Source of the DNA: Cirrosporium novae-zelandiae | Lineage: Eukaryota | DNA: 64,000 nucleotides | Reading direction: 5' to 3' | Assembly: GCA_026023565.1 (NCBI GenBank) | Contig: JAPETS010000033.1 | Coordinates: 124,001 to 188,000 of the forward strand | In this document: positions 3,673 through 56,502 of the stretch, one piece after another | How the letters are laid out: each line of letters starts with the position of its first letter | Position numbering within the stretch: position 1 is the first letter of the stretch | The notes under the pieces: generated by a model | Seen by the model: the letters and a program-made list of their open reading frames with translations, nothing else | What the model was told of the DNA's origin: nothing | Database searches by the model: none | Made by a program: the position numbers and the translations under genes

Positions 3673-6060
3673 TCACATCATCATTAACCTGGTTGTTCTC
3701 CGCTCCGGGAATTTACGTCCTGGACCCAGCATGGCTGATTGTTTACCAGCATGTGCAGAGCAATATACTTTGTTGTTCACTTCAAAGTAATCATTTTGCA
3801 ATGAAGTGTGGCAATCCTGCATTCACATTACTTGATTGTCACCCATTGGAAAATATAAAGAGTTGGAACTTACCTCGCATTTAAAGCAGTTGGGATGATA
3901 TTTCTTGTTGCTGTGTGTCTGGATATACGGCCCTTCAATTCCATGATCGCATCCTCCGCATAATGATCCGTTCAGCTCATGATAATGTCGTTCACAGTAA
4001 GGTTGATTCTCCAAAACATAAAAATCAGATGTTTGGAAGGGAGACTTGCAGGTCTTGCAAACGAAACATTGCTTGTGATATCTTCCCGTCAATCTTCCGT
4101 CAGCAGAACTTATGGATTTTCCTGTGATAAGCACGCCACAGCCTTTGCAATTTCCTCTATTACCTAGCGTCTTTCGTCTACCTGGAGGTGCAGTTCCCGG
4201 CCTATTAGGAGGAGGCGCCATTGGCACTCGATTATTTGCAGGAGGAAGTGGGGAAAGACGCCCATGCTGAATTGCTGGATCTATTGGAGATTCTGGAGAC
4301 GCAAAGAAGGGCATTCTAGGCTGCTGTAGCTCCCCTGGTGGTGCTGTATTTGATCGATTCAATGGCATACGCCCACCTGGAGGGCCCATAGGAGACGTTG
4401 CAGAACGTGCCAGTGAGGTTTGGGTTTGAGGGTCGTCTATTGGACTTTCGCTATCCTTGACACTCGAAGGTTGGGACCCTTGTGAGATCATGGATACTGG
4501 TGGGCTAGATCTTGAACTGATAGTTCTACCATCATATGCAGAGGAGCCACTGGACGAGGTTGAGAGCATTGTCATATGGTTGGGGCCCCGCTGAAGCGGC
4601 ACTGGAGGAGCATCCCCTAGCCTTGGATCTTGTCGGTATCCGTTGCGGCTCGCGTTGCGCGGAGGATGCATGGGGATTGCTTGTCCAGGTTGTAGAGGGA
4701 CTTCGGGGATAGTCCCTTCGATAACCAGGGTTGGTCTCCGAGCTCGAGATGGACCCGACGTGATCGAAGCAGCTTCCGATGGCCTTCTTGGTCGCATCGG
4801 CGGAGGTCCTGCAGGAAGAGGGCCTGTAGGAAATGACCCTCCGGGGCCGGGACCAATCGGAATACGATCATCTTGTGGAAAAGGCTGATACTTTTCTTGG
4901 TTAGTTTCCTCGCCTAGTTTCAACGGCATGGTCTGCGACCTATTTGGTGATTTCAAGGGCGCGATGTTGTCGTTGAGCGGGAATGTTTTGGATCTACTTT
5001 GAATGTTTATATGATCATCAGGATGCGGAGAGTTTGCCGGTTGATGTTCATCCAAATCAGACATGTCATCGGAGTCAGGTGTTACTATCTCGGCTTGAGA
5101 CGGCTCTGGAATTTTATGAAGCAAAAGTTGTGGTGTCACACTACCTGGAAGCTGAGGCGCATTGCTTTGACCCAAAGGTTTTGGTACCAGATTACTTGGC
5201 AAAGAAGGTCTACGTTGACGCGCTAGCACAGGATTTGAAGGATTTGGTGTCTGCGATCTCTTCACCTCAGGGCTAGCCGGCCTCGAGGGTCCTCTGGTGG
5301 TCCCGGACGCTCCATCGGGCTGAGTACCGCTCGGCTTGAATTGATCCCTATGGGAAGGATGATCCCTTGAACCGGCATGTCGCAAATCAAAAGGACCTGG
5401 AGCCATTTTGTTCATTCGTTGTGATACCGCATTTCCTCCATTTAGAGACGGACTGAGTGGCGCCTGATTTAAATTCGGACTTGGTTCAGCATGCATTCGG
5501 GCGAAATTATTGGGTGGTGGATTAAATTTAGGAGCCTTGGTCCTCGTCGGAGTGGCAGTCCTGGATATCGGAAAGGGTGGAAATGCACAATCGAGGTTCG
5601 AAAGTTCCGGTGATGGGGGGTTTGCCGTCAGAGGTGTCGTCATGCTTCTCGGAGGCATACGCATTCTTGGCGTTCTCCCAGGAGCGGGAGATATGGGAGA
5701 TGCGCTTCGGCTGCTTCCTCTGGATGCCTGACCTGGTCCTAGGAATGGCCGATCTAATCATGTCAATACTGAGGACGCTAAATGAGATAAGTTATAGCAT
5801 ACTTGCGGCATTTGTATCCAATCTCGAAGGGGGCATCCTTTGATTCCGTGCCGAGGGCGGTTGTCTGCTGCTACTCCGCGGCGGGGAAGAGACTTTTAAG
5901 ATGGCTATTCAAAATTAGCAGATTGGTCTGTATTGAGGAAATTCAACGCACGCTGAGAGGTAGAAGAGCAGACATGATCTCCCATCATTGAAATTTCGAC
6001 ATTGTTGCCGCAATTCGAACACTTTATCGAGGGCAACATAGCCCCCGCCGAAGTGGCCAT
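3673..6060 (-). CDS. Proline-rich LIM-domain protein (paxillin-like), spliced
   Basis: Exon 1 reads MATSAGAMLPSIKCSNCGNNVEISMMGDHVC from ATG 6060; C-terminal LIM domains CKGC..HKQCFVCKTC..YCERHYH and CGGC..HPNCFKC; last exon ends PERRTTRLMM* at 3673. Confidence 0.85.
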
Positions 6061-10578: not shown

Positions 10579-12348
10579 ATGGCTCCAAAATACCCTTCCA
10601 TAGAATCCTTCATGCATCCTAGGCCCTCTCCACAGAAGACAACATCACCCTCAACCCTTACGCCTGGAGATGGTTTTACAGCTGAAGAAATCGAGATGAG
10701 CTTAAACCCAACCACTTTACCATGGAATCCGAATCAAGAATATGATGATACAGATATCATCGATCTAACTTCCGGTTGGAAAAATGTCACCTTCATGGGC
10801 CGAGTAGTCAACTTTCATTCTTTTCCGATACCCGACAGAGGCCCTCAATCAGCCAAAGGCTGCACCAAGATCGTCGTGAAAGATGATACTGGTATCATTG
10901 TAGTCAAGCTACTATACGCACACGAGGCTTTCGGTTCGAATCGTCCTTTAACTCTTGGATATCTCGTCTCGATTTGGACCACTCGGATAGAAAATGAGCA
11001 CAATCCGGGCAACGTTCAAGAGAAGTTCCTATCTACTACCATCTTCCCAGAACGGGACCGCACGTGCTATTTCATGATACAAGATCAGAGCGATGGGAAA
11101 GTTCTCTGCAAAAGCCCTCTCGAGTACACGGAAAACCGTCCTTTGGCTGGCCTGATGACGTTAAAAAACTTTAAGGAAGGTGGACACGAGGTTCCTGAAG
11201 TCAAGGTTCTCGTATGCATTAAGAGCATCGGGGTGAAGAAAACTAGTAAATATCTAGATCGTCCTTGAATCTTGATGATTTGACTAACTGATGCTCTTCA
11301 AGTTTCCACTAGGAATGGCACCTCCTTTGACAAGATTGACCTTCTTGTCTTTGATGATACCAGTACCGCTACATTATCTCTGTACAACGATAAGATAGCC
11401 TCCTCTCTCTCCTGGCAGCCTTCTGTGACAACGCTTCTCATTACCAAACCACATTCAAGGATGGACTTTAAAGAGGGGATTGAACTCTCCATAAAGTCAT
11501 ACACGCGTGTGGATATCGACCCTGACTTTGTGGACGCACAATGGTTAAGGTCTTATGCTCAAAGGTTAACAAAACGGCAGCACATCAATCCTCCATTCCA
11601 GGAAGGAGGTAATAAAATCCGAATGTGTGTGTGCTGCGTGCGGACTTTTACTAATAGCTATTTTTGTAGTCTTCGACCTTGACCAATTCGAAATGGCAGA
11701 ATCAAAGCTTCTTTTTCGATTAAGTGATATCGACTCGTTTGTTCGATCCAAACCTAACGGTGAGATAGATTTGAGATCTCCCTTCCCCCAATATACGCCC
11801 ACCTCATCAAGAAAAAAAAAACTTATTTTCCATAGAAATTTACATGGGCTACCTAAGCATTCTGATAACCGAGCTCAACCTTGTGACACTCAGCATTGAT
11901 GGAAGGCTCCTTTGCAACGAATGCTGTGGAATGCCCATCTACGCCAACGCAACTTCTGCTAAATGCAAAACCTGCAATACCGAAGTCTCTTTGAGAATTA
12001 ATCCTCGTCTGGTACGTACTGACCCTACCCTACCCTAGCCTCCCTTACCTCACCTCCCTCTTTCACCTTGCCTTACCTTTACATCCAACCAGAACACTCA
12101 TCTCAACAACAATAAACAAATAGGTCGGAACGATACTCGACGAAACCGGTTGCATCTCGCCAGGAAAGTGTATCTGGTCCCCAACAGCCTGGGAACAACT
12201 TCTCGGGAGAACTGATAAACAGTTATTGACAATGACGACGAGGGAGCTGAGAGGGCTGGAGTGTAGGATGCTTTATCTGAGATATCATTTGTTGTTTGGA
12301 TGGTCGGGGGATGTTGGGAAGTTGGCTATTTGCGGGGTTAGGCAGTGA
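10579..12348 (+). CDS. Multi-OB-fold nucleic-acid-binding protein with a C-terminal Cys zinc ribbon (RPA1/MEIOB-like), about 5 exons
   Basis: OB-like strands VTFMGRVVN, IVVKDDTG, LVFDDTS and GTILDETG; CNECCG..CKTC zinc ribbon; splice sites join the track ORFs; TGA at 12346-12348. Confidence 0.72.
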
Positions 12349-39014: not shown

Positions 39015-40827
39015 TTATGATGCCTCGGCTTTGCCCTCCTCCTTCCCAGCATCCGGGTTCAAATAATCTTCCTTCTCCGCAGCTTCATATTCATTAATCA
39101 AATCTGTGACTACATTTCTCGCCTCATAGAATTCCCCTAGTCCGTCGGCAAATGCCGCCTCCTTTTTATAGCCATCCAAGAAAGCATTTCGCTTTATCAG
39201 TCGATCATATTGTTGAACGATTCTACGGAAAAGAGTGGCCACAGAGGTATTGTTGGCTAGCATAAGACCACTGACTCGGTGGGTGTTTGGGAGGTAGGGT
39301 GACTTTTTGGTCAAGGCAACTTGGATGGATGCAGGACCCCAAGGTATGAAGGTTGCTAGGCGCCTTTCACGAATACGAAGGAGCGATTTATGAACCTAGA
39401 GCGATTAGCAAGTGACTTATTAAAGAACTTTACTACTTACATCCGTTGGGTCTGCCTCGCCTTGTATTATATTCAAGATACTAATGTAACAACTATTCTT
39501 TCCAGGACTGGTAGATACCATACGATTTTTCGGTTGAAGAAGTCGCCTCATAACATCTAGAACGGTTGTTTTTCGAATAGTCTTGGCTTGCTCGACACTA
39601 TCTCCGGTGAATGGTGTGTACGACGTCATTAAGAAGTGACAACGAGGAGTAGGGATCAGAGAAGCAATTATGCCCACAAGATCATTGTGCATATATCCGG
39701 GATATCTTAGAGTTGTTGTAGAAGCTGACATGACAGTTGAAACCTAAACGAGATGAGAAAGACTAAAGGGAGTAAATGATGAGAGTGCATACTAGTTGAT
39801 TCGTTTGCTGGAACGATGGTTCTTGAACATGCAACCTATCTGCAGCAATTCGAGATAGAGCTCCGTTATCGAGAACAACCTATAACTTATCAGAATATTC
39901 CTTAGACTTGATATAAATAGTACATACCACAGAATCGGCATTCTGAGTCAATCTCCGCAGAGTAAGCAAGCTATTGTATGGATTGACAACAACATCTCCT
40001 CCAGTTTGTGTGTCTGGAAATACAGAATATGTCTGTATAAGCTTCTTCGGAAATCGATCGTTCATATTCTCTAACAAAAAGCTTCCTAGCCCTGATCCGG
40101 TGCCACCAGCGATCGAGTGTAAAAGCATAAACCCCTGGAAGGATCATCAGTACTTTCTCTCGATAAATTGTAAATATATTCCTACCTCAAACATATCACT
40201 TCCATCAGCTTCTCGGTCAATCATATCGAAAACCTCCTCTTTAACAGAATCCCCTGCAGCATATCCAGCGGCCCAGTTATTTCCTGCGCCAATGCCTTGT
40301 TTGCCAATGTAGTAATTTTCGGGATTGTATATGTTTTTGTAAGGGCCGGTTTGAATTCCATTAATCACCTGTACTCCTCCATTAGACACCGGGCTAAGTG
40401 AGGGGGTTGGAAGTCCGTACTCGAGGTTCAAGGTCTATAAGAATCGCTCTTGGGATATATCGTGTGTCATCGCTCTGCGTGCTTCATTAATTTTCCGTGG
40501 GCCTGTACTATTGTGCTTTCTCATACCTGATAGAAAAATACGTCCTTGCGATCGCCACCTTCTGTCGCAAAGTCCTCCAGATTACCATCTTGATTAATTC
40601 CATGTTCCTGGCACAACTGTTGCCAAAATGAACTGCCCACTATAAGACCAAGCAAATTAGCGGCTTCTCCTATCCAGTATTCCTACAAAAATGGATGAGT
40701 ATGGTTTGGGGTTGCGCCGAGTTCGTACCGCTATTGCCGCATTGGCCTGCTTGAATAGTAATGATTTCTCTATCCGATATTTAGCATAAGTAATGAGGTT
40801 GTAATAAATCTAGGCTTACCTGGGCAT
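39015..40827 (-). CDS. TUB4: Gamma-tubulin, multi-intron
   Basis: [35 protein letters not shown] and [13 protein letters not shown]. Confidence 0.97.
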
Positions 40828-41601: not shown

Positions 41602-43515
41602 TTATTCGCAAACATAACTGGTCCAGTCCTCCGAATCTCCACTTGTATATACTGCTGTCTTTGGCCATGGGCACAACTTCCGGGTTCGATTGGAGCCATC
41701 TTCTGGATTCGACGACTCGACATCCTCGGGTACTTCTCCATCTTCCACCCATGAAGTTAACCGTTCAAGAACATGATATGTTGCCGGTGCCTGGGTGACA
41801 TAAGGTGCTGTGCCACAATGTCCTCCGCCTATGAAGATGTTAGAAAGGGACAACGAAAAAGGAGTAAAGAACTCACCTGGAATCATGAATATATTAAAAA
41901 AGTCTGAAACATCACCCTCAAAATAATCCTGCAACTGATGCAGATGTTCAATGGGCCAAGTCGCAGCATTATATGGGTCTGCCCAACCTGAAGTAGATAG
42001 TATTGTTAGCAGGGATCCTTCAAAATATTTCTGTTCATGAATGGCTTGGTTGATTCATCCATCTGCTGTGATGTGAAGGCTAGAAAACTTTGGCTACAGG
42101 CCTGAATGCAGCTAACGACAAGTGATTGGTGTGAATTATTTACTGAATACATACCTTGAGTCACAATCATCTTACCCCCATTCTTCTTGAATGCTGACAG
42201 ATTTGCGGTGATTTCGTCGATTTTGGGGCTTGCGGTGCTATCCACGGTGTCGACGTCGGCTCCAAAGTCGAATGTAGATACATTGTAGGTTAAATCATTG
42301 AAAACTAGGTTCTGTAAGATCGGTGTTGAGTAATTAACATACAAAGTCGACTCTTGATATATCCAGGAGCTCTCGGAGCCGAAGTTGAATCCCGGATAGA
42401 CTTGTGTGCCGTTCCGTGGATCTTTAGGACCAGCATAAATAGCTTTCGCGGTCGCAACCTGGGCGGCAGTGAGGCAACTACTTGAATTTGTTGTGCTGTC
42501 GGCACACTGCAAAGATGTGATATTGAAGTCGCATTCCAGCGGGTTTTCAATTAATCGATCATAAACACCATCATTGCCATCGCACTGGTCAATTGTTGCA
42601 TTACCGATCAAATCGAGAGCATCTTGGCTGAGATATCCGTCTCCCTAGATAAAGATTGTTCAGAATATCGTTTTGGAGAAGACATGGATCAAATAACCTT
42701 TGCATGCAGACCATTCCAAAGGAAAGATAAGATCAGGTGAGAATACCAGTTTCCAGGACATCCAGCATAGATCCCATCAAATAGGTCTGGATGATATTGT
42801 GCAAGCGCAAATCCCTGGGCGCCTCCCGTGGAACAACCCTTGTAGTAGTGGTGCTTTGGCTTTTTGGAGTAATATCGTTTAGTGAATTCTCGGGTAGGCA
42901 CTGTAAATGTCGCAATAGAATTCTGAATCCATGATCGAGTCTGGTATTCATTGTGCATAAATGGGATATATTGCCCAGGCTCTGTTGTACCATTGCCATT
43001 GAGGGACAGCAGATGTCCTGAATCACCACTAATTAGGTAAATGATTAGCAAGCGCTCAATAGGCTGTAAATAATTTATAGAGCTCACCCAGCAACAGCAT
43101 ATCCCTCGTTCGCACTCAATATCAGATTCCACGTGTCAATAGCTCCAGCCAACCCGCTATTACCTAGATATAATTAGTCCATAATAGCCAATACTTCTAC
43201 GATAGAATCCAGCTTACCGACAGCAAGGTAACGACCATTATAATTGGAGGTCTCGGGCAACCACAACTCCCAATTGACGGTATTTCCACCTGCATATGAA
43301 GTGCTACCAATCACACGGCACAGAGTGTAATTATTCCAGTAACCAGAAGATATAATTTCCCCGGGAGCTACCACAGACGAGTTGGTGACGGTGGTGCCGT
43401 TGATGACATCCTTGATCTGATCTGCAAAAATTGCACAACCAACATGTCGTTTCAATGTGGCTGCATGAGCAGCATAACCAAAAGTAAGTAACCAAAGGGT
43501 AGATGGCAGCATCAT
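41602..43515 (-). CDS. Secreted tannase/feruloyl esterase family protein
   Basis: Signal peptide MMLPSTLWLLTFGYAAHAA; WLP..YNGRYLAVGN, nucleophile GCSTGG, GWAD, GHC and RKLCPWP. Confidence 0.92.
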
Positions 43516-44176: not shown

Positions 44177-46123
44177 TTATTTTAGTATTATATCCTCAAC
44201 AGTCAGGTACTCGGATTCCATTGCCTCTCCATCCATGAATCCATCGACATAGCACTCTCCAATTAGTGCATATTCTTTCCCTTCTTTTCGGATAACCCAT
44301 GGTACACATCCACCGAGAAAAACGCATATTAAATCGCCTGGCTGCATCCTTGAAGAGCCTATGCCCATGTAACCACCAAGGGTAGCGAAAAATCTCCGAT
44401 CCAATGATGTCAAGGCTAATGATTCCGCAAACTTCGTGAATCCCTCAATATGAGGTTGAAGCGCGATAGAAAAGTTAGCGAAGTCGGCCCCGTTGGGTAC
44501 TCTATTGGGGCAAATGATGGCCAAGTACTGTCGAAAGTGCCAATAGTGCTTTGAGTATTCGCTGATAGGTATCTCCTTGTAGTGGTTGAAATGCTCATTG
44601 CAATGTTTTGCGCTTCCATTTGCAAGGAGGGTGCGCCAATAGGTCTTTTCGCGAGCTTCAAAGTCCAATGTATTATACTGTCCACATTGGGCCGCAATGA
44701 AGCTTGTTTCGTAAATCCAATAGCTCAAAGGAAGACGGCTGAACGCAAGTATTTCTTCTGCTTGCTTGGTACGCATTCCTTTCTTCACGAATCTAGGATC
44801 CAAACTGTCCACCTCAGGAGGAGCGATGTTGCTGGCCAGCTGAACCGCATCGACAATCTTCCCAGCAATGCATATATGGTTTGGATCCTTGCACCAACTC
44901 AATCTAATCGCAGAGTCCCCGGCAGCCTTGTAACCAAGACTACCATGCCTACACCAAAAACTATCTCTTGAATTTGCAGTCCAATCAGGAACCCAAGAAG
45001 GTAAGTCCAACTTCCACTCCGAACGGTCGACTTCGGCTAGAAGGGACATGGCCTCATGTCCGCGGCCAGCAACTGGACATTTATCGGAATGCATAAAAAG
45101 AACGTTGGCGGCAACCTTGCGATAAATTTCATCAACATTCTTAGTATAGTCGGGAAATATACCATGATTTGCCGGAGTAAGACCCAGGAGAGCGAACACC
45201 TTGTCACGGGGATCAGAAGCTTCGAACCATCGCGAGCCCAGGAGCAATCTTTTCATACTCATGGAGTGATTCCCCTCGTAGTTTAACTTAAACTCGGTTA
45301 TATGCCGAAGACGGGATCGCAGAAAGTCAGCCGATGTACCCTGAGGCCTGTGAACTTTGAAGAGATTGTCCCAGGTACCAGCAGTCGACATCCTTAGGAT
45401 CAGATCCCGCAGAACGTTCCACGAAACCTGCTGCTTTCCACATAAAATAGTTGCCGAGGAGGATACGGCTAGCTCCTGGAGAACCCACATGCGTCCGAAC
45501 CACGGCCGACTTAGCAAAGCAGACAGTGCTCTCCATTCCCGCGCATGAAACGGGGGCAGACTCTTATCCTGCAACTGGCTTTCCGAAAGTTGCTTCTGAC
45601 AACTCTCCAAAACCTTGACTACCCGATGCAGAAACTCATACGCCAATTTGCTATCGTCGGCCTCCTCCCCAAGCCACACGACAACCTTCTCCGCACATCG
45701 ATAAATATCTCTCATCAGCTGTACTTGCTTCCCACGCTCTCCAACATTCTTTTGATTAATGCAAATTTGATCAACCCAAATAGTCACAACTTCATCTCTA
45801 CTCCGAAGGTGGCGAAGAGCGCCGAGTAAATCTTCCGTAATTTCTAGCCGTTGTCCGTTACATGTAATTGATGTCTTTCTGCTAGATTGGCCCCAGCAAT
45901 ATGAGAGCGCTTTATAGCTTTGTAGACCGTGATCTAACTGAACCTCCTGCAACTCACAGACTACTGGCCTCGAGGGGGCCCGGGAAGGTAGAATATTCGC
46001 GAGCCTTATCGCTCGAGCACTTTCAACGGGCTTGTAAACCAGAGAACCCGCTGTTGATGGGGATGAGGACGAGGAGGAAAAAGACAGCTGGCTAGAATTC
46101 CAGAGCGAGGAGAATTTCATCAT
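44177..46123 (-). CDS. HET-domain heterokaryon incompatibility protein (HET-6-like), intronless
   Basis: YKALSYCWG, IWVDQICINQ..E..QV..M..IY, WFGRMWVLQE, DPRDKVFALLG, LPSWVPDW and LIGECYVDGFMDGE. Confidence 0.93.
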   Translation of the reverse strand: MMKFSSLWNSSQLSFSSSSSSPSTAGSLVYKPVESARAIRLANILPSRAPSRPVVCELQEVQLDHGLQSYKALSYCWGQSSRKTSITCNGQRLEITEDLLGALRHLRSRDEVVTIWVDQICINQKNVGERGKQVQLMRDIYRCAEKVVVWLGEEADDSKLAYEFLHRVVKVLESCQKQLSESQLQDKSLPPFHAREWRALSALLSRPWFGRMWVLQELAVSSSATILCGKQQVSWNVLRDLILRMSTAGTWDNLFKVHRPQGTSADFLRSRLRHITEFKLNYEGNHSMSMKRLLLGSRWFEASDPRDKVFALLGLTPANHGIFPDYTKNVDEIYRKVAANVLFMHSDKCPVAGRGHEAMSLLAEVDRSEWKLDLPSWVPDWTANSRDSFWCRHGSLGYKAAGDSAIRLSWCKDPNHICIAGKIVDAVQLASNIAPPEVDSLDPRFVKKGMRTKQAEEILAFSRLPLSYWIYETSFIAAQCGQYNTLDFEAREKTYWRTLLANGSAKHCNEHFNHYKEIPISEYSKHYWHFRQYLAIICPNRVPNGADFANFSIALQPHIEGFTKFAESLALTSLDRRFFATLGGYMGIGSSRMQPGDLICVFLGGCVPWVIRKEGKEYALIGECYVDGFMDGEAMESEYLTVEDIILK

Positions 46124-48326
46124 AAAAAAATGAGTAGAAAGTTGTGCTAAGGAACACAGAGAAAGCCTCACCCGCTCCTTGCATTTCCATTTAGGTAGGC
46201 GAGCGCAAGAAACCTCTATGGCTCATAAACACACAGTATAAGAGAAAAATGGAATCTCAATATCCGCAAACAAAGGAAATCACTCGTTAATATAAAGTAC
46301 GCCGCACGAAAAGAGTTGAGTAGAGCTGTCGTGGCTGTGTGAAATTCTATAAATAGAACATTTCATCAGATGGATCAATCCTAGACTGTTGGGGGCCAGT
46401 TGTTGTATGAAATAAGGACGATTCATTTTCAAAGAAGCGACAACGCATATATAAATAATGCCAACATCTGAATGCTAGAATTACGTTTTATAAACCTTGA
46501 ATCTACAATAATATACTTGTATTATAACAAAAAGAATGATTGTTACGGATCAATTGTTATAGATGCCAAGTTATATTCATGCCTCAGGTTTAAATACACG
46601 TGATTTAAGTCACATGACCGAGCCTTATATAGATTCTAGACCTTAAGCATACATATCCACACCAGTTATACACCTAAATGTGAGCTTTATAAGAGCTACA
46701 TCCTGGATGTTGTAACACTACTGAATATCTTACAAAATGACTTTTTCAATTTGAAAATTTACTAATTAATTCTACCAGGTATCTAAAAGTCTAAATTTGG
46801 AGGAGTTCGAGAATTAAAGATAATGAACAGCAAAATACTACATATCGATTAGACTAACCTTTCTCGTCTATGCTTGATCAACTAGATTAAAGAGGCCGGT
46901 TTGGTCTATTCCCTTCCTTGGCTATAGTTGCCTAGTAATCATGTGATGTCGCAAGGCTGGATCGCGAAGGGCACTTTTCCAGAGGAATTGTCGATGAGCT
47001 CCCACTGCCTCTCATCTATAGCCCAATCAATCCGGTTATGACGATATGCTAGGCAATAATGTACCGCTTAGCCCATAGCACCCCTTCCCTCAAGAACGTG
47101 GTATTTGCGAACGGAGGGTACTACTGCATGGCTTACACGCATTTTTAGCTAGCTAACCGCCATGAACTTTGAGAACATTTGCTGCCCAAGCGGGGTCGCA
47201 CGAGAGAATATGAGTGGAACACGTCAACATCCCCACGATTCTGCAAGATAAGAAATACCCTGTGATGGCGCTATTTTCTGCATGCACTCTATCAAAGCTT
47301 ATAAAGCCAATTAGTTCTTGCTGACTGTTTTTGTATTTGGGATTAAGTAATTCTCTACGCTCAGACCCATCGCTGCATTTCTCGACATCGAAGATCTTAT
47401 GCTCTGCTTCGCTCCTTGCGATAGGGAGTTGCTGCGAATCAGCAGAATTTGGAGAATGTGATGATCACCTTTCCGAGGTCCCTGCTCTCGGACATCTTTT
47501 CACCTACAACGGGATGATATGAATGAGTTGTTTTGTGACTATGCCCTAGATGCCCCCCTCTACAGCTTTCTATACAATCTGCATGCGATTTATAATTTTG
47601 ATATTACTATATTCTAAGCTTGATTCTTAATTGCCCAGCAACTGGATTGATCCTGACCCCGCTTCCTAAAGACCCAAGGGTTTCATTAGTGATTGGTTTA
47701 ACAATTATACCTTTTATATTGTGGCTTGTAGTATATTTCCTTGCTTCCTAAGAAATTGATACATACGATATTAGTTCATGCACGGCATGTCCCCATTGTA
47801 TCACACAAGTCGGCTAGAGAAGAAGGCGAGTTGACAAATAATTTGGACGCATGGGGTCAATTGGAAGTGCGTGCAGGACTAAATGCCATCGACTTGATAA
47901 GGCATAAAGAACCAAGGGAAAGGCGAGAGGGGGGAGGGTCATAGCACATATAACAAGGTAACAAATCCAAACGAAGCAAATGAAATCTTTTTACATCAGT
48001 CCGAACTCTAGTCAGCTGAAGATTCACTTACCCAAGTGGCATGCGACATAGCTGAAAAGAATTCAACCTGCAGAGTATGACCGCCACAGGTCGCTCTTGC
48101 TCGTCTTTTACACCAGATCCATAAAACAGAAAAAAACTATAAAGGAAACGCTACAGTCGGAAGATTTTGGAATATAGACAACTGCCTACACACCCACCTT
48201 TAACCGTAATACAAAATACTTTGCCTACCACCATCCACAATATTCCAACATAATAATATTCCTCTTTTTTAGAACCGAAAAAAAACCACAACAGCTTCAT
48301 AATTGGCCTTCATATAATAAATAAAT

Positions 48327-48595
48327 ATGCCGGGCCGTACTCCCCAACCCGAACGCTTCAAAAATTATCAGAGACTACCCACCGGAATCTGCAAAGAGTG
48401 TAATTGCCTAGAGTATGTAGACCGTTCTAGACCGAACGGCAGATGCCGTATGTGCGGGCATAAAGAGTCAGGGCACTACTGTAAGTTCCTCCCTATTAGA
48501 GCAGATTTTAGATGCGAAAAAAACAAACTTTTATAAATGTTTTATATGTGTTTATATGTGAATTACTAACTAAATTTTAAGGGCCTATAAATTAA
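48327..48595 (+). CDS. Cys/His-motif microprotein A (55 aa if spliced)
   Basis: TATAAA about 190 bp upstream; AAAT-ATG; intron 48481-48581 (GTAAGT..ACTAAC..AAG); product ends GICKECNCLEYVDRSRPNGRCRMCGHKESGHYWPIN*. Confidence 0.62.
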
Positions 48596-50085
48596 GCTGC
48601 TGTGTTACTTGCACGTCGGTCGGCCGGGTCTGGGCTAGGGAATTTTGGCTCAGAAAAATAAAGCAAATTGTTGGAATTTTTTTGTATATTACTATAGGGA
48701 GTCGTTTCTAAGCTATCAATCATTGCTACTTGTGTCTCGTATGTGAATGGAATATCTATTATATTCCACTACTACTGGTACTCAAGTTGTATATATAGTT
48801 ATGCCCTATTGGCACTGGCTGAGATCAAGGGTGTCCACCTTTAACATGCTAGGATTTGTTCAACTGGTAGTAGATCCTATCTTGGTGGTGCGCTACATAG
48901 ATTACCCCATATAGGAAATAACCACATTTTACAAAAGAGCACACACTTTATTCTCTCTTTAATAAAGCATATCTACATGCTAGATATGAATGAATGCTAA
49001 AGAGGGTGATGTAGGGATAGATTGAAAAGGGTTCAGCAAGCTCTCGGAGAGAGCAGAGAAGTAGAGCTAGCTCTAAGTGAAATTATATATATCTTTATAT
49101 TATCTACGACTGACTAACTCTCAATATATTTATTCGCCCAAATTTATACAAATCTATAATCTCCCATCCTTCGTTTTGCGAATTTATTTGTATTAAGTTG
49201 GAAGTGTAAGGTGTAACGATACATACCTATTGTCCGTGCACATGTACAGTACAGTCAGTATAAACAGGACTTGTGTCTCCCCTCCCAAATGTAAGACTTG
49301 ATGCAAACGGATCTTCACATACCAGCTAGCTGGCTTCCCATTAACTACCTACCTATTTAAAAAACTATTTATTGTTCCTTTTTACTCATCGAAATAGAAA
49401 TGCTATTACTCTATATATGTTAGGTTAGGTATGGCATACTGTTCTTTCTATAGCACTGGTGAGGGAGGACGAAGATTAAGTAAGTAAGAACGGGGCTTTA
49501 TAAAGGGGTTGGTGTTGGGTTTGATGGAGATGGGGTTCGGAATAGGGGGTAGAAATAGAAGGATTAGTGATTGGGGGATTGATTGGTTGGTTGTTGGAGG
49601 AGTGATTCCGCTCTCCCTGATATTCTAGAGTAATGTGGTTATTTGAGGTCTGGTTTAACATCTGAAGGACGCGGTATTAATGTGCCCCTCTCTAGCAGTA
49701 GTTCAATAAGGTGAGATCTTGAAAGCCAAATATAATAATAATAATATGAGCAAGTAGTGAGTGTGATGGTTCCTTAGCACATTCCCTAGCGTCCACCTTC
49801 TTAAGCTGGGTTCTCCCCTTCTTAGATTCTAGACCTCAGTCAACAATATCCCCCCCCCCCATACCAATTACACCCCTAACTAGTAGATAGAGGCTTCGTA
49901 ACAAGTAATGAGCGAACGAAATAACACACCCAGTACAACCCAAAAATCCATTCATCTCATCCCCATCGAAAAGAAAAAAAAAAGATACCAATCCATCAAT
50001 CTATTAGCAACTCTTTAGAATGAAAAAAACCATCTCCTATTCATTCATTCTTCTCTCCCCTCCCCGGTTCTCCGTAATTCCAAAA

Positions 50086-50370
50086 TCAAAGAATCTCATG
50101 ATTTTTATACGCATGCTCACAAGTAGAAACCCCCGACCCGTTCTTCCTACGGCAGACATCATCCTTGGCTGGATTATTGTTGCCGACGAAACCCGAGCAA
50201 CTGCATTCATCGCAGGCGCCCTTTCCGTGCTGGATGGGAGTGGTTTGGCCGATCGTGCTGAAGGCAGATAGAGAGGTGATTGCGGTGTTATCGTCTTGTG
50301 GAAAGTGGGGTGTGCGGTTGATGGAGGAGGTGGAGGAGGAGCGGGAGAATGTGGGGGTTTGGAATGACAT
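50086..50370 (-). CDS. Cys/His-motif microprotein B (94 aa)
   Basis: ACAAAA-ATG context; TATATAA about 145 bp upstream; ends GACDECSCSGFVGNNNPAKDDVCRRKNGSGVSTCEHAYKNHEIL*. Confidence 0.65.
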   Translation of the reverse strand: MSFQTPTFSRSSSTSSINRTPHFPQDDNTAITSLSAFSTIGQTTPIQHGKGACDECSCSGFVGNNNPAKDDVCRRKNGSGVSTCEHAYKNHEIL

Positions 50371-51561
50371 TTTTGTTTGTTTTTTTTTTGTGTGTGAGGT
50401 ATGTTGGTTGTTGTTGTTGTGGTGGGGGTTGGGAGGATGGGATTGTGCTGGAACGGCTTTGGAGGTTTGTTCGCTGGTGAAGATGTGTGAGGGTCGCATC
50501 CATAGTCGTTCTTATATAACATTGTGCAGAGGACTGTCATGCTGTAGTAAAGTCGGGTATTAGATAGTTGAGGTATCATGCGCGCAGTTGAAATGGGAAA
50601 TTATTACTCTCACGCTCACGATATCATCCTTAGTCTATGGTCGTTAGAATCCGAGTTGCCTATCTCAGTATTTTATTGAGAGTTGAGGAAGGTATAAGGG
50701 GAAGTCTGATGTAAGAGGGAGCACATCTGACCTTTTTACCATACTATTTAAAGTTATTTCTCAGATGTGAAAGCTACTAAGCAAGCTTCATCTCACTTTG
50801 CTTCTAACAAGTGAGCAGGGCGACTGTTCTTGGGGTGATATGGGGAGCTTAAAGATGTAGCCCAATTGACGTGTCCCCGGTGTCAAACACGACATTAACT
50901 CGCATAGAGAGACGATATACAGTCTCATACGCTGTAGTCGACTTTTATAGATGATAAGCAACACGATACTCGACGACCTTTTTAAAGCTCCTCAGTCACA
51001 GCCAAGTCGGTCCCAGCGAATCACCACTAAGAGCAGCCTCTCCATATGTTCCTTTACTTCACCTCATTCATGAGGCCTGTTGACGTATTTCGCTTGCGCA
51101 TTCAGCGGATCCAAACCCACAGTCTTCCCCAATAAAGCTCAGAGCCAGTCTTTCATCTGATAATGATAAGCTTAGAAATAGCCACCAGCTGCTGGACCAC
51201 CCCCTCAACATCCGTTAAATATACCCCATCCCTTGGCCTAGATATTTTCCTGAATAACTGACTGACAGACGTGATGCTGTCTCTCGAGCCTTACTCTGAA
51301 TGCGCTTCGACCTTGACTCGTCACCCTCGTTTCCAGAGACACCATAGACTATCGAAATCTTTTGGAAAGACCCTGATACTGACACTGCCCGTAGAGAGTT
51401 CCTCATCATCATCAAATGACACGTCGCATGACATTGGAAAAATTTCCCGGGGAATCGAATGAATAAGACTGATATTTTTTAGTACAATTCAATAGAAGAC
51501 ACAGCCGATGCCAGTCCATTCGTTGTGAGGAACTATACCCAATTCGGGGTCATACTATATT

Positions 51562-51834
51562 CTAGCTAGCGCGTGCGTACTGAGGGTGGATAGTCCTGCC
51601 TAAGAACTTGCGGAAGATGCTGCTCCAAAACCCGTCTTCTTTCTTGTATATGACAGCAAACGCTGCTCGTTTAGTGCTGACCAATGCACTATACTTTCTT
51701 ACGCTTAAACGTCTTTGCTCATCATCATCACTACTAAGATCAAGATTACTATCACTTAAATCATTGTCATCATTGCTGATTGACAGTTCCGCCTGTTCCG
51801 ATACAAGTAGTCCTAGTGCCAACGCCCTCGCCAT
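51562..51834 (-). pseudogene. Frameshifted Myb/SANT-like domain relic
   Basis: Stitching frames gives WSALNEQRLLSY/KKEDGFWSSIFRKFLGRT/PSVRTR* (TAG where Trp is expected), after an acidic Ser/Asp tract. Confidence 0.55.
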
Positions 51835-53128
51835 AAGAACACTTACCGAGTCACCATAGAATACGGCTTACTTCTAGAGAGGGAGTCGTCTCCTCCCACC
51901 ATGCTTAAGCCGAGATGAAACCATGCAAGCTAAAAGGGAGTTAATAGGAACAAACAAACAAATATTACGGCTGCGACTTGACGGTGAAGGAGGTTACAAT
52001 AAAGCTAACAAGTTGTCCGAAAGGACGATTTGCACCTCTTGCGATCGGCCCGAATCACCGCTGTAGTCGTTGCATCAAGTCACAAAGAGCCCGACACCGA
52101 AATTTCATGTTCGGTAGCAAGCCGGAAGAGCTAGGCTGTACTCCTAAGTTACCGAGTCTATGGCCTAGAGAAAATACTATATTCACAGCTCGTAAAAAAA
52201 ATATCTAGGCTATACAACCCACAACCTAGTAGGCCTTAAAAACCTCTTAACCGACATCTTCTGTTCTAGCCATCCCAAAGGATCACATATACAATCAAAC
52301 ACCCAAATAAAAACGAATAATCATCATCATGCCTACCATTACCATTAGGACCTAGACCCGAGGCTAGGGCCAGCAATCGCGGTTAATTAATTCCATAATT
52401 ACATACCTAAGTAATAAGTCATAAACCATAAATCATATAAAAAAACACATACTGTAATTACTTAGGCAATTATTTCTATAAAGTAAAGAGGGAAGGGGGG
52501 GGTATATTGGTTGTGATGCTTTTTGGATAAAACGTGCTATAGTAGGGCTAGGGAGGGGGTTGGATGGATGGATGATAGATAGATAGATAATGGGACCTGG
52601 TTGGATGTGTCCATGTGCGTGTGGATTTATACTATAGATAGTAATGTATCTCGAAATATAGAATTAAACTAACTTGTTAACAACGACTACCCCTATATGT
52701 TACAAAGTACATGTAAATATTTTTTGGAATGGGTTAGGGGGATTGTTTGTTTGTGGGTAGTATGGGCAGTGTATAAATTGATCTTGAAGGTATGGATAGT
52801 TTGATTTTGGTGTGGAGGGGATATAGGATAGGAGAGGATAGGATATGGAGATGGAGGTAATGTGAGAAAGATGAGATGAATGTTGGTTGAGATGTAAGGG
52901 GCTAGGAATCTTAATGATTATCTACTGGTTTATATGGATTGATGTAGGGATACTATATAGGAAGGGGGTGGAGCTAGGTATAACCGATTAGATTGTCTCT
53001 TGAAAATATCTTTATTCACGTAGGTGTATATATATTACCACCCCTCCTCCCTCCAAAAAAAAAATAACAGCGAACAAATACCACTACCCAACCCCCCCAA
53101 CATCCAACCCCATCCACCCACCTAGTCC

Positions 53129-56100
53129 TCAACCCCACCTCCTCAACCAAGCCCCAACAAACCTTCCCACATACCCCTCCCCCAAAACATCAACCCCACC
53201 CCTCAGCGCTCCACTCTCCCTCTCCGCCATGCCCGTTTCAAAAACCAACCCCTTCCTCCTCCCCGGCTCCTCAATCTCATATTTCTGAACAAAAAAATCC
53301 AGGAGTTTGATGGGTGGGTTGACAGTGGGGTCCTGGGGACCCGAACGTAGGCGGGAAATCCATTCATGCTGGGATACAGGGGTGAATTTGAGACCGGCGG
53401 CGTGGAGGGCGGGGAGGAGGTCGTGGGTCCAGGAGAAGCAGGTTGGGTTTGTGAGGTTGTAGATTTGGGGGAAGTGGGAGTGGGAGGGGGTGGGGGTTTC
53501 TTTGTTGTTATTAGGAGGAGAGGATGACGAGGAAGAAATACAAGCAAGCTCGAGGATCGAAGTCGCGAGGACATCCACAGGAAGCCACGAGGGATTTTCA
53601 TCCAGCATAGGTAGACACCCCAACGTGACGGCCGTTCTGATCATCAGGGGAATAGCCTCCGTATCATTCCACAGACCTGCCGTTCCATCCCCCACGATCT
53701 GTCCGATCCGGAAGATTTTGCTTGCCGCTCCAGCCTTCTGGGCTGCGTTTAGAACAATGTGTTCCGTGACCAGTTTGGATCGCGCGTAGCCCATATTCTG
53801 CGCGTGGGTGAGGTCAGTGATGGGGGCTTCGGGGATCTTGGTTGGGAGTGGGGTTCCTGCGGCGGCGGAGATGGATGAACAAAAATAGAAGCGGGGTGGG
53901 GTTGGGAGGTGGGAGGATAGGGAGAGGTTCAGGAGGTGAAACGTTCCTGCGATGTGGTGGGATTCGAATGATTGGACGCCTAGGTTGAAGTTTACGGCCC
54001 ATGCCGAGTGGATGATGCAGGTGGCTTCGTTTCTGATTGCTTCGAGAATTGTGGGGGATAGGCCAAGGGTTTCGTTGCTGAAGTCGGATGCGAGGGCAAT
54101 GATTTTGGATTGGTTTTGGTTGGGGACGTAGAGCTCACGCTCGAATAAGGCGGCTAGAACACGGTCGCGCGCGGCATGAGAGTTGGGGGCTCGAACGAGG
54201 CAATATACTTTGGAGACAGAGGAATTGAGGAGGGATTGGGCTAGGATGTGGGCGCCTAGAGAGCCAGTTGTGCCGGTGATGATCTAGAATGGTTGTTAAT
54301 ATTTCAGCCGATAAAAAGGGTATCAATGATAACGTGATTTCTTACCATTACTTGGCTTTTAGGCATAGGTATGCCCGTAGGTTCGTGCTTCGTGAATGTC
54401 GAATACTTTTCTATAAGATCGCGCATCACGGAAATCTCATCCCTTTTATCCATCTCAATTCCCATTCGCAATGCATATAGATATCTAGCCAGCTGTGAAA
54501 CATTCTGTTGTTCAAACACAGCATTCTGGGTCATCTTCGCTCCATTTCCACCCAGAGAAAGCTCTCTTTTGAGAAGACTCCACATCTTGATGGCTTGTAG
54601 GCTATCAACACCAGCAGAGAAGAAATCGGATTCTGTAGTTGGCAGATGGATCCCCAAGTGCGATGAGAATTTCTCCAGTAGCCATGCTTCGAGTTGGGCT
54701 TGATCAAGCTCGAGGCTTCCTTCTCGACCAGTCTCAAAATTATTGTAGGCCAGGTCAATCTGAGGGGCAAAGAGTTCATACATCTGAGCGCGGATGAAAG
54801 TTCCTTTGTCCGTCCTTGGATATAAGGTTCCTGTAGGTATGGAGACAATCATTTCTTTATCAATTCGTGAGAATGCCTCGGCTTTAGAATTTGCCTCCTC
54901 GACGGCCGGCCAGATTTGAGAAATGAAATCTTCATCTGATAAGTTTTTCGCTTTCTCGCTGCGGATGACAAGTAAACCTGGAACCGCTTTGCCAATTCCA
55001 AAGACCAACGCTTCCTGAACCGTGTCTTCTTCCTTGATGCGACCTTCAATTGTTAATGGTAGAACTTTCTCGCCATTCATCAAAGTCACTCGATCGTCAA
55101 TGCGGCCCATGTGTTTCCAGGCATCTGGTATTGTGGGATGTTTGATAAACAAATCTCTAGTTCTGAAGGATTTTGGTGGATTATCGGAATTGCTCGTAGT
55201 TTTTGACTTCAAACCATCGAGAACAACACACTCATAACTTCCTGGAGCGATTTCGTCCATCAGCACATACGGTTTTACTTTAGGTAGAATGCGATTGTAG
55301 TCCCATGCATCATCGCCCGCGGGGCGGAAGGACGTCATGAGTTGGCCTGTCTCCGTACTAATATTGATAAGCGTGTAGCTCGGGATTATCCTTAAGGTGT
55401 AGCTATCTTGACTTACGATCCATAATGCGACACCAAATTAACCCCCTGACTCACCAGTCGATGTCCAAGTTCATCTGGACATCCACTCCCACCAAAGAGT
55501 ACAATTTTGCATGACTTTAAGACCTCAGCTCCCTGCTCATGCTCTCCAAGTAGCTTCAAGGCATATGGAACGCCATAAAAAATCTCAGGTTTAACAAACT
55601 GAAAGACATCCACAAGATTTCCCCCTGTCAATGGAAGGTTTGCATTGTAGAAGAATATTTCGTTCCTTGAGTACATGGATCTGTAAAAGCAGCAAAGTCC
55701 GTGGTTATGATAGAGGGGCAAGGTAATAAACCCACGCATTGGGAAACCAGTGGAGTAATTGCCAATATTAGCCCCATGAGTTTGGAAAATTGGTTTTGGG
55801 AGCCCAGTTGAACCTGAAGAGTGGATAATGAAAGAGAGTCTTTTGCTTGACTCAGGCGTACTAGCTGGAGGAATATATCGAGGCTCGGTTAGGTTGTGAA
55901 AGTCGTAGTCATGGCGGGAGAGCATTGGAAATTGCTCTACTTTCCTTTGCTGTTGAATTTCTGACAAGGTTTTTGCGAATTGGGGTGTATGAACCAACAT
56001 ACTGCACGACGCCTTTTCTAACAGAGAAACATAGGCTATAACAGAGAGTCTAGTTGATAAAAAGAAAACAGTATATCCTAATCTAACAAGACCAAACATT

Positions 56101-56502
56101 GAAACAAGGTAATTCAAATCCGAAGGTCCCAATAAAGCTACAACACAAGGAGTTTTCTGGACCTATATTAGAATTTCATTTATTCAAAAATGACTTGGTT
56201 GAACTCACCGTTGGAGCAATTCCATTCTGCATGAGCTTCTTAGCACTATGGTCCGTAAATCTATCCAGATCCTTTGGTGTGAAATGCTCATAGTCTATAA
56301 GGCCATGTTTAGATTTTGGATAGGCTACTAGTGGAACCTGTTCTTCATCAGAAGCGCGATCGCATAGAAGATCATCGATCGTATATATTGGCTTCTTTTC
56401 AATTGCATGGACCTCAAAGGTTGGTTTGATGGAGGACGCGGAAGAAGAAAGCCGATCTTCCGGAACTGGGAGAACAGGACGCTGAGTCTCAACAACGAGC
56501 AT
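53129..56502 (-). CDS. NRPS-like A-T-R enzyme (carboxylic acid reductase type)
   Basis: A domain HSSGSTGLPKP, YGS-TETG, RTRDLF and GRIDD; T domain DFFSAGVDSL; R domain ITGTTGSLG and GYARSK; 3 introns. Confidence 0.93.

Follow-up and report, generated by a model that had tools for sequence, protein, structure and literature searches.

Two facing short open reading frames with a common Cys/His motif beside a HET-domain gene of Cirrosporium novae-zelandiae: candidate zinc-binding microgenes

Background

Do two very short open reading frames (ORFs) that face each other in a gene-poor part of a fungal genome, and that end in a similar arrangement of Cys and His residues, represent a pair of small genes or an accident of base composition? 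This question is raised by a locus of Cirrosporium novae-zelandiae, which we analyzed within a window of 64,000 nucleotides (nt) (assembly GCA_026023565.1, contig JAPETS010000033.1, positions 124,001 to 188,000 of the forward strand); all coordinates below refer to this window. ORF1 starts at position 48327 on the plus strand, and ORF2 occupies positions 50086..50370 on the minus strand. A preliminary description of the locus had proposed that the two ORFs belong to a family of metal-binding microproteins likely to be missed by annotation. The ORFs, their common motif and several gene-like signals around them are present in the DNA, and the explanation that we tentatively favor, as possible rather than probable, is that ORF1 and ORF2 are real, lineage-restricted zinc-binding microgenes derived from an old inverted duplication.

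Results and discussion

A Cys/His motif near the C-termini of ORF1 and ORF2

Direct reading and a search with a regular expression recovered the two facing ORFs and the pattern near their C-termini as they had been described. In both ORFs, the string G-x-C-x-E-C-x-C-x2-[YF]-V is followed by C-R and then by C-x-H-x4-H. The motif extends from G20 to H50 in ORF1 (48384-48476), where it includes C-x2-C-x14-C-x2-C, and from G51 to H91 in ORF2 (50098-50220), whose N-terminal half is rich in Ser, Thr and Pro. The likeness between the two sequences consists of an ungapped block of 12 residues and of more loosely spaced Cys and His residues.

When ORF1 and ORF2 were compared with BLASTP, the expect value (E) was 7e-4 for this single comparison, covering 17 residues, and the Smith-Waterman score of 47 was reached by two of 5,000 composition-preserving shuffles. 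The full regular expression matched twice in the six frames of the window and in none of 100 shuffles; note that this count is post hoc, as ORF1 and ORF2 themselves served to define the pattern. Among 2,667 segments of the window compared with phmmer, ORF1 and ORF2 were reciprocal best non-self matches. The preliminary description had found no obvious DNA similarity between the two loci, and we likewise detected no direct or inverted repeat connecting them at the DNA level. The codons differ at seven of the 12 identical residues, as expected for an old conservation at the protein level. The resemblance is thus suggestive of a common origin, although it is weak and does not prove homology.

Gene-like signals around the ORFs

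Exon 1 of ORF1 (48327..48480, plus strand) comprises 51 codons and one additional nucleotide, and its start codon has A at position -3. It is preceded by a putative promoter and 5' leader (48080..48326), which contains no ATG in any frame over 247 nt; this gap ranks in the top 1.25% of the 2,409 ATGs of the window. The leader has a GC content of 25-33% immediately before the start codon. A TATA box had been assigned to each of the two ORFs. At ORF1, a TATA-like run (48313-48326) directly adjoins the ATG, too close to serve this ORF; the sequence TATAAAG at 48138-48144, 189 nt 5' of the ATG, is the candidate in its place.

The sequence fits the canonical intron described earlier for ORF1. The putative intron of 101 nt (48481..48581, plus strand) starts with the donor GTAAGT, contains the putative branch site TACTAAC at 48563-48569 and ends in AAG, with the acceptor AG (48580-48581) being the first AG past TACTAAC. 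The coding part of exon 2 (predicted at 48582..48595) would complete a Trp codon and add Pro-Ile-Asn before the stop codon TAA at 48593-48595. The spliced product would have 55 amino acids (aa), and the unspliced frame (48327-48536) encodes 69 aa. An AATAAA sequence is located downstream at 48657-48662. The strict combination of GTAAGT, TACTAAC and AG has its sole match in the 64 kilobases (kb), both strands considered, at this site (approximately 0.22 matches expected per 128,000 strand positions, from 100 shuffles), and the match sits exactly at the end of the ORF1 motif. The GC content changes in step with the predicted structure: it is 0.25-0.33 in the leader, about 0.44-0.52 in exon 1, 0.21-0.28 in the intron and about 0.5 past the acceptor. 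The GC-rich stretch past the acceptor (48575-48674) has no long frame.

ORF2 consists of 94 codons and a stop codon (50086-50088), with the ATG at 50370. Its putative promoter and leader (50371..50518, minus strand) begin with the TATA box TATATAAG (50518-50511), located 148 nt 5' of the ATG. The leader is rich in C and A and poor in G, leading to the start context ACAAAAATGTC; the A at -3 in both ORFs agrees with the good start contexts noted earlier. The leader is free of ATG over 126 nt, between 50496 and 50371 (top 9.4% of the window ATGs). A second in-frame ATG at 50499 is just 12-19 nt past the TATA box and therefore probably lies 5' of the transcription start. The codon-usage score of ORF2 (0.236 bits per codon) ranks at the 99th percentile among 354 short ORFs clear of long ORFs and falls inside the range of the long ORFs of the window. 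Its GC content at third codon positions (GC3) is 0.62, and its TpA/ApT index (0.35) is similar to that of the genes of the window.

Among the 277 ATG-initiated ORFs of 50-150 codons in the window, a leader of at least 126 nt combined with A at -3 was found in nine, and both ORF1 and ORF2 are among these nine. The coincidence of ATG-free leaders at both ORFs has a joint frequency of about 1% (28 of 277 for each). These signals are independent of the Cys/His motif, which supports the gene-like character of both ORFs. In agreement with the absence of a signal peptide noted earlier, inspection of the N-termini by eye revealed no hydrophobic stretch in either ORF, and a secreted effector was ruled out on this ground. 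A pheromone or CaaX precursor was also ruled out, as the C-termini have no CaaX sequence.

Search for relatives

We searched for relatives of both ORFs in protein, structure and genome collections. Exact look-up in a large protein collection returned neither ORF2 (94 aa or 137 aa) nor the unspliced ORF1 (69 aa), and no word-sharing form of 28-97 aa was found there for either ORF. The expectation that annotation had missed the ORFs thus held for this collection, in which the 647-aa HET-domain protein of the same contig is present; the best other relatives of that protein are approximately 45% identical. The low identity of these relatives, together with the absence of the small ORFs, indicates that the lineage is poorly sampled and that the ORFs have not been called as genes. 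A word-indexed collection of 5.8 billion clusters contained nothing for ORF2 or for the two-row alignment of ORF1 and ORF2. A profile search of 1.84 billion protein representatives gave no true relative; a relative as distant as ORF1 is from ORF2 (8-10 bits, phmmer) would fall under the listing threshold of this large search. Two matches with E values of 3e-4 and 8e-4 were rejected as spurious: one, a bacterial protein, was matched on DnaJ-like C-x2-C-x-G-S-G repeats, and the other, a repeat protein of 3,055 aa, was matched on N-G-S-G strings.

The preliminary description had anticipated homologs with conserved Cys and His residues; none emerged from profile and pattern searches of protein collections, metagenome contigs and prokaryote genomes. 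One locus on a metagenome contig of the Joint Genome Institute, of prokaryote or phage origin, has a 177-aa ORF in which G-I-C-D-E-C-N-C precedes C-P-K-C but which lacks C-x-H-x4-H; it was dismissed as an artifact of the search pattern. The scan of prokaryote genomes gave 46 pattern matches, none of which was confirmed, and no third copy was found inside the window by profile or regular expression. In a protein atlas, the top scores were 0.82 for ORF2 and 0.89 for ORF1, both to unnamed small archaeal clusters and under the level of 0.9 taken as a lead.

As the preliminary description had implied, the motif matches no characterized domain family: with E values of up to 10 admitted, hmmscan detected no Pfam-A domain in either ORF. 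The sole row, below cutoff, was the Spt5 C-terminal domain on the low-complexity N-terminus of ORF2. NCBIfam contained no relative, with a single DnaJ row (E 0.1) far under its cutoff, and a profile search of PDB at E up to 10 gave no match. A literature search yielded no paper on a fungal motif of this kind.

Comparison with known zinc-binding modules

Zinc ribbons are among the nearest known modules. The zinc-ribbon arrangement of two C-x2-C knuckles 8-25 residues apart is present in ORF1 (C-x2-C-x14-C-x2-C), whereas in ORF2 the fourth and fifth Cys residues are 10 residues apart. Both ORFs share their small size and C-x2-C knuckles with the zinc ribbons of the TFIIB N-terminal and Rpb9/TFIIS types. 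They differ from these in bearing an extra C-x-C and a C-x-H-x4-H tail, and no sequence match was found to a solved chain or to a ribbon family of Pfam. The string C-x2-C-x(8-25)-C-x2-C occurs seven times in the window, against 0.84 times in shuffles, and ORF1 has one of the seven; at least three belong to real zinc domains (two in a putative LIM-type gene and one in a Zn2Cys6 gene), and two are in out-of-frame ORFs. This enrichment, like the zinc-ribbon character of most of the weak Foldseek rows for the ORF1 model described below, speaks for zinc binding. Small size and C-x2-C knuckles are also reported features of the C(P)XCG zinc-finger micro-proteins of the archaeon Haloferax (PMC10716476, PMC11241148).

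The SWIM zinc finger (PF04434) has the signature C-x-C-x(n)-C-x-H, and C-x-C-x2-[FY]-x(n)-C-x-H is found in both ORFs. A SWIM-like regular expression, C.C..[FYW].{5,25}C.H, again written post hoc, matched both ORFs and nothing else in the six frames of the window (0.11 matches expected from shuffles; one of 100 shuffles reached two). Unlike the SWIM finger, the ORFs have a second His and, two residues upstream of the C-x-C, one more Cys, and PF04434 gave no row for either ORF in the Pfam-A search. The classical C2H2 finger has the spacing C-x(2-4)-C-x12-H-x(3-5)-H. It was rejected for ORF1 and ORF2, in which the second Cys of the knuckle and the first His are 19 and 29 residues apart, respectively, and for which there was no Pfam match.

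Among fungal modules, the Zn(2)-Cys(6) cluster (PF00172) is a short, Cys-rich metal-binding module, as the motifs of ORF1 and ORF2 may be. The ORFs differ from it in the spacing of the Cys residues, in having His ligands, in their total length of 55-94 aa and in having no DNA-binding or dimerization region. By analogy with this cluster, two zinc ions sharing one bridging Cys could in principle be accommodated by the seven conserved ligands. Metallothioneins and copper-fist or Mac1-type proteins resemble the ORFs in being small and in having Cys clusters that include C-x-C, and C-x2-C-x-C strings are mentioned in the metallothionein literature. In contrast to these proteins, ORF1 and ORF2 have just five to six Cys residues in 55-94 residues, with aromatic and charged residues between them. 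The Zn(2)-Cys(6), metallothionein and copper-fist profiles of Pfam matched neither ORF, even with E values of up to 10. We therefore describe the putative domain as zinc-ribbon-like or treble-clef-like and assign it to no named family.

A model of two microgenes and the alternatives to it

In the explanation that we favor, an old inverted duplication would have produced two small genes, homologous to each other, encoding proteins of 55 aa and 94 aa. Both genes would be transcribed and translated, ORF1 after removal of its intron. Each product would be a small intracellular protein, folded round zinc in its C-terminal 30-40 residues. One Zn(II) would be bound, in a hairpin of the zinc-ribbon or treble-clef type, by the shared C-x2-C knuckle together with the C-x-H near the C-terminus (and, in ORF1, the second C-x2-C as well), and the further conserved residues, two Cys and one His, may stabilize the fold or form a second site. 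The domain may serve as a small binding module for protein or nucleic acid, with the Ser/Thr-rich N-terminus of ORF2 as a disordered tail. A bolder version, which we consider decidedly unlikely, is that the pair founds an unrecognized family of fungal micro-proteins of approximately 50-95 aa with an undescribed type of two-zinc cluster, located near HET genes. The ligands of such a family would be seven invariant residues (five Cys and two His), accompanied by a conserved Glu, and the family would have been invisible to annotation because of its small size and its location in fast-evolving accessory regions beside HET genes.

A serious rival, though on balance a somewhat unlikely one, is that both are chance ORFs in a gene-poor spacer of approximately 7 kb that is partly AT-rich and partly strand-skewed. 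In that case, the motif would be a post hoc coincidence, and base composition would have produced the gene-like signals by accident. The following results weigh against the two microgenes, and many of them favor this alternative. In a window-wide scan, the similarity statistics stay inside the range of chance: the 739 window ORFs of 40-150 aa form 271,358 non-overlapping pairs, in which the ORF1/ORF2 score has rank 198 (many of the pairs above it are low-complexity), and the phmmer E values of the pair (0.12-0.34) are not significant window-wide. A colinear chain of at least seven matched Cys/His residues, with the spacing slack of the preliminary description, was found in 272 of 31,199 pairs, ORF1 itself gives chains of nine and eight with two out-of-frame ORFs, and 23 of the 739 ORFs are equally rich in these residues (at least five Cys and at least two His inside 45 residues). 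Cys/His patterns of flexible spacing thus arise easily by chance among random ORFs. The spacing of the fourth and fifth Cys differs by eight residues between the ORFs, and ORF2 does not have the second C-x2-C of ORF1. The proposed family did not grow beyond its two sequences, whose likeness is within the range of chance ORF pairs in the window. As for the intron, GTAAGT (38 against 36.8 expected), TACTAAC (5 against 10.4) and a relaxed intron pattern (7 against 5.45) are not enriched window-wide. The codon-usage score of ORF1 is neutral (-0.004 bits per codon), and its short region is AT-rich with dinucleotide indices like those of repeat-induced point mutation (RIP; TpA/ApT 1.27). The ORF2 locus (50008-50600) is overlapped by three ORFs (141-187 codons) that differ in frame and are found on both strands; these frames are open because the minus strand is strongly pyrimidine-rich (plus-strand GC skew up to +0.6), and the length of ORF2 owes much to this strand composition. 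An ORF of 87 aa antisense to ORF2 also has a high codon score (0.211). The searches of protein, structure, metagenome and prokaryote collections, which included no fungal genomic DNA, returned no homologue of either ORF, and no Pfam family was matched. Structure prediction, suggested in the preliminary description, gave models of poor confidence, with a predicted local distance difference test score (pLDDT) of 58.6 from AlphaFold2 for ORF1 alone and 43.1 for the domain of ORF2, modeled from the two-row alignment. Foldseek gave no match to the ORF1 model at E up to 0.001; the rows that remained were weak and mostly zinc ribbons (such as 1pft of TFIIB and Rpb9 chains), the best being the TFIIB N-terminal ribbon (E 1.2, template modelling score 0.39). 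Against chance, however, several independent signals would have to coincide, namely the ATG-free leaders of both ORFs, the sole strict intron pattern of the window inside ORF1, the step in GC content between exon and intron, the codon score of ORF2 and the adjacency of two look-alikes. Score and Cys/His criteria together selected nine pairs, among which ORF1/ORF2 is the sole one within 3 kb.

It is also conceivable, although unlikely, that only ORF2 is coding, as an orphan that has a small Cys/His tail behind a disordered N-terminus, and that ORF1 yields no functional protein; the intron and leader of ORF1 would then be part of a transcript that is non-coding or framed differently, or else ORF1 would be a decaying copy. 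The contrast between the ORFs in codon score, in TpA/ApT and in the GC3 of ORF2 points in this direction, as do the better placement of the TATA box at ORF2 and the GC-rich stretch past the ORF1 acceptor that has no long frame, and an intron indicates splicing signals rather than translation. However, with just 51 codons, ORF1 is too short to be rejected as coding on codon statistics, its leader is the longer of the two ATG-free leaders, its regular zinc-ribbon Cys pattern is enriched in real genes of the window, and the better AlphaFold2 model is that of ORF1. Far less probable still is an origin from two old inverted insertions, of which the ORFs would be worn transposase zinc-finger remnants (Mutator-like SWIM or hAT BED). 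The string C-x-C-x2-[FY] followed by C-x-H in both ORFs, the gene-poor region and the mild RIP-like indices at 48-50 kb would fit such remnants. On the other hand, neither ORF was matched by a SWIM, BED, transposase or other domain of Pfam when E values of up to 10 were admitted, the 81 stop-to-stop segments of at least 38 aa at 46.2-53.1 kb had no credible match at E <= 0.05, including none to the host proteins of SWIM (MuDR-type transposase, SNF2 ATPase and MEKK), and no inverted or direct repeats mark the ends of an element. The motif lies, moreover, inside ATG-initiated ORFs that have leaders and that stop close behind it. With the evidence set out in this way, we retain the two zinc-binding microgenes as our tentative explanation.

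The surrounding locus

The HET gene reported to adjoin the ORFs was confirmed at 44177-46222 (minus strand; Pfam PF06985, E 2.6e-37). It is divergent from ORF1, with its 5' end approximately 2.1 kb from ORF1. Adjacency in a single window is all that connects the ORFs with the HET gene, and we claim no functional tie. On the other side is a gene for a nonribosomal peptide synthetase (NRPS)-like reductase (53129-56162, minus strand) with AMP-binding, AMP-binding_C_3, PP-binding and NAD_binding_4 domains. It is of the carboxylic-acid-reductase type and is spread over three adjoining frames, suggesting introns or frameshifts at approximately 54290 and 55420; the GC content climbs sharply to 0.55-0.58 in the last part of this gene. 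The gap between the HET and reductase genes (46223-53128; 6.9 kb) has no long ORF and is long for a fungal intergenic region. A Myb relic had been placed in it; the 81 segments, however, contained no Myb, transposase, SNF2 or kinase sequence, and the two rows obtained (LcrR and DUF4605) were below cutoff and due to chance. Rfam gave no match on 46200-53200 at E up to 1, and no repeat structure was found in the gap. Mild RIP-like dinucleotide indices were observed at 48000-50000 and 51500-53000 (TpA/ApT 1.03-1.16, (CpA+TpG)/(ApC+GpT) approximately 1.0-1.08), compared with 0.55-0.7 and 1.3-1.4, respectively, in the genes of the window.

Further features of the window were assigned by Pfam to a Zn2Cys6 factor (PF00172; 59053-60063) and to a tannase fragment (42006-42644). 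The long ORF at 3826-5757 (minus strand) has several C-x2-C...C-x2-C and C-x2-C...C-x-H patterns and is putatively of the LIM type, for whose double zinc fingers such patterns are typical. A zinc-ribbon-type string, C-x2-C-C-x14-C-x2-C, at 11913-11975 (plus strand) may belong to a real gene. Short ORFs at 39018-40682 (minus strand) have high codon-usage scores and resemble exons of a conserved gene, presumably tubulin-like as judged by eye.

Conclusions

If the explanation that we favor is correct, ORF1 and ORF2 would be unannotated fungal microgenes whose ligand pattern is recognized by no profile library. The gene-poor gaps of fungal accessory regions could then conceal small metal-binding proteins.

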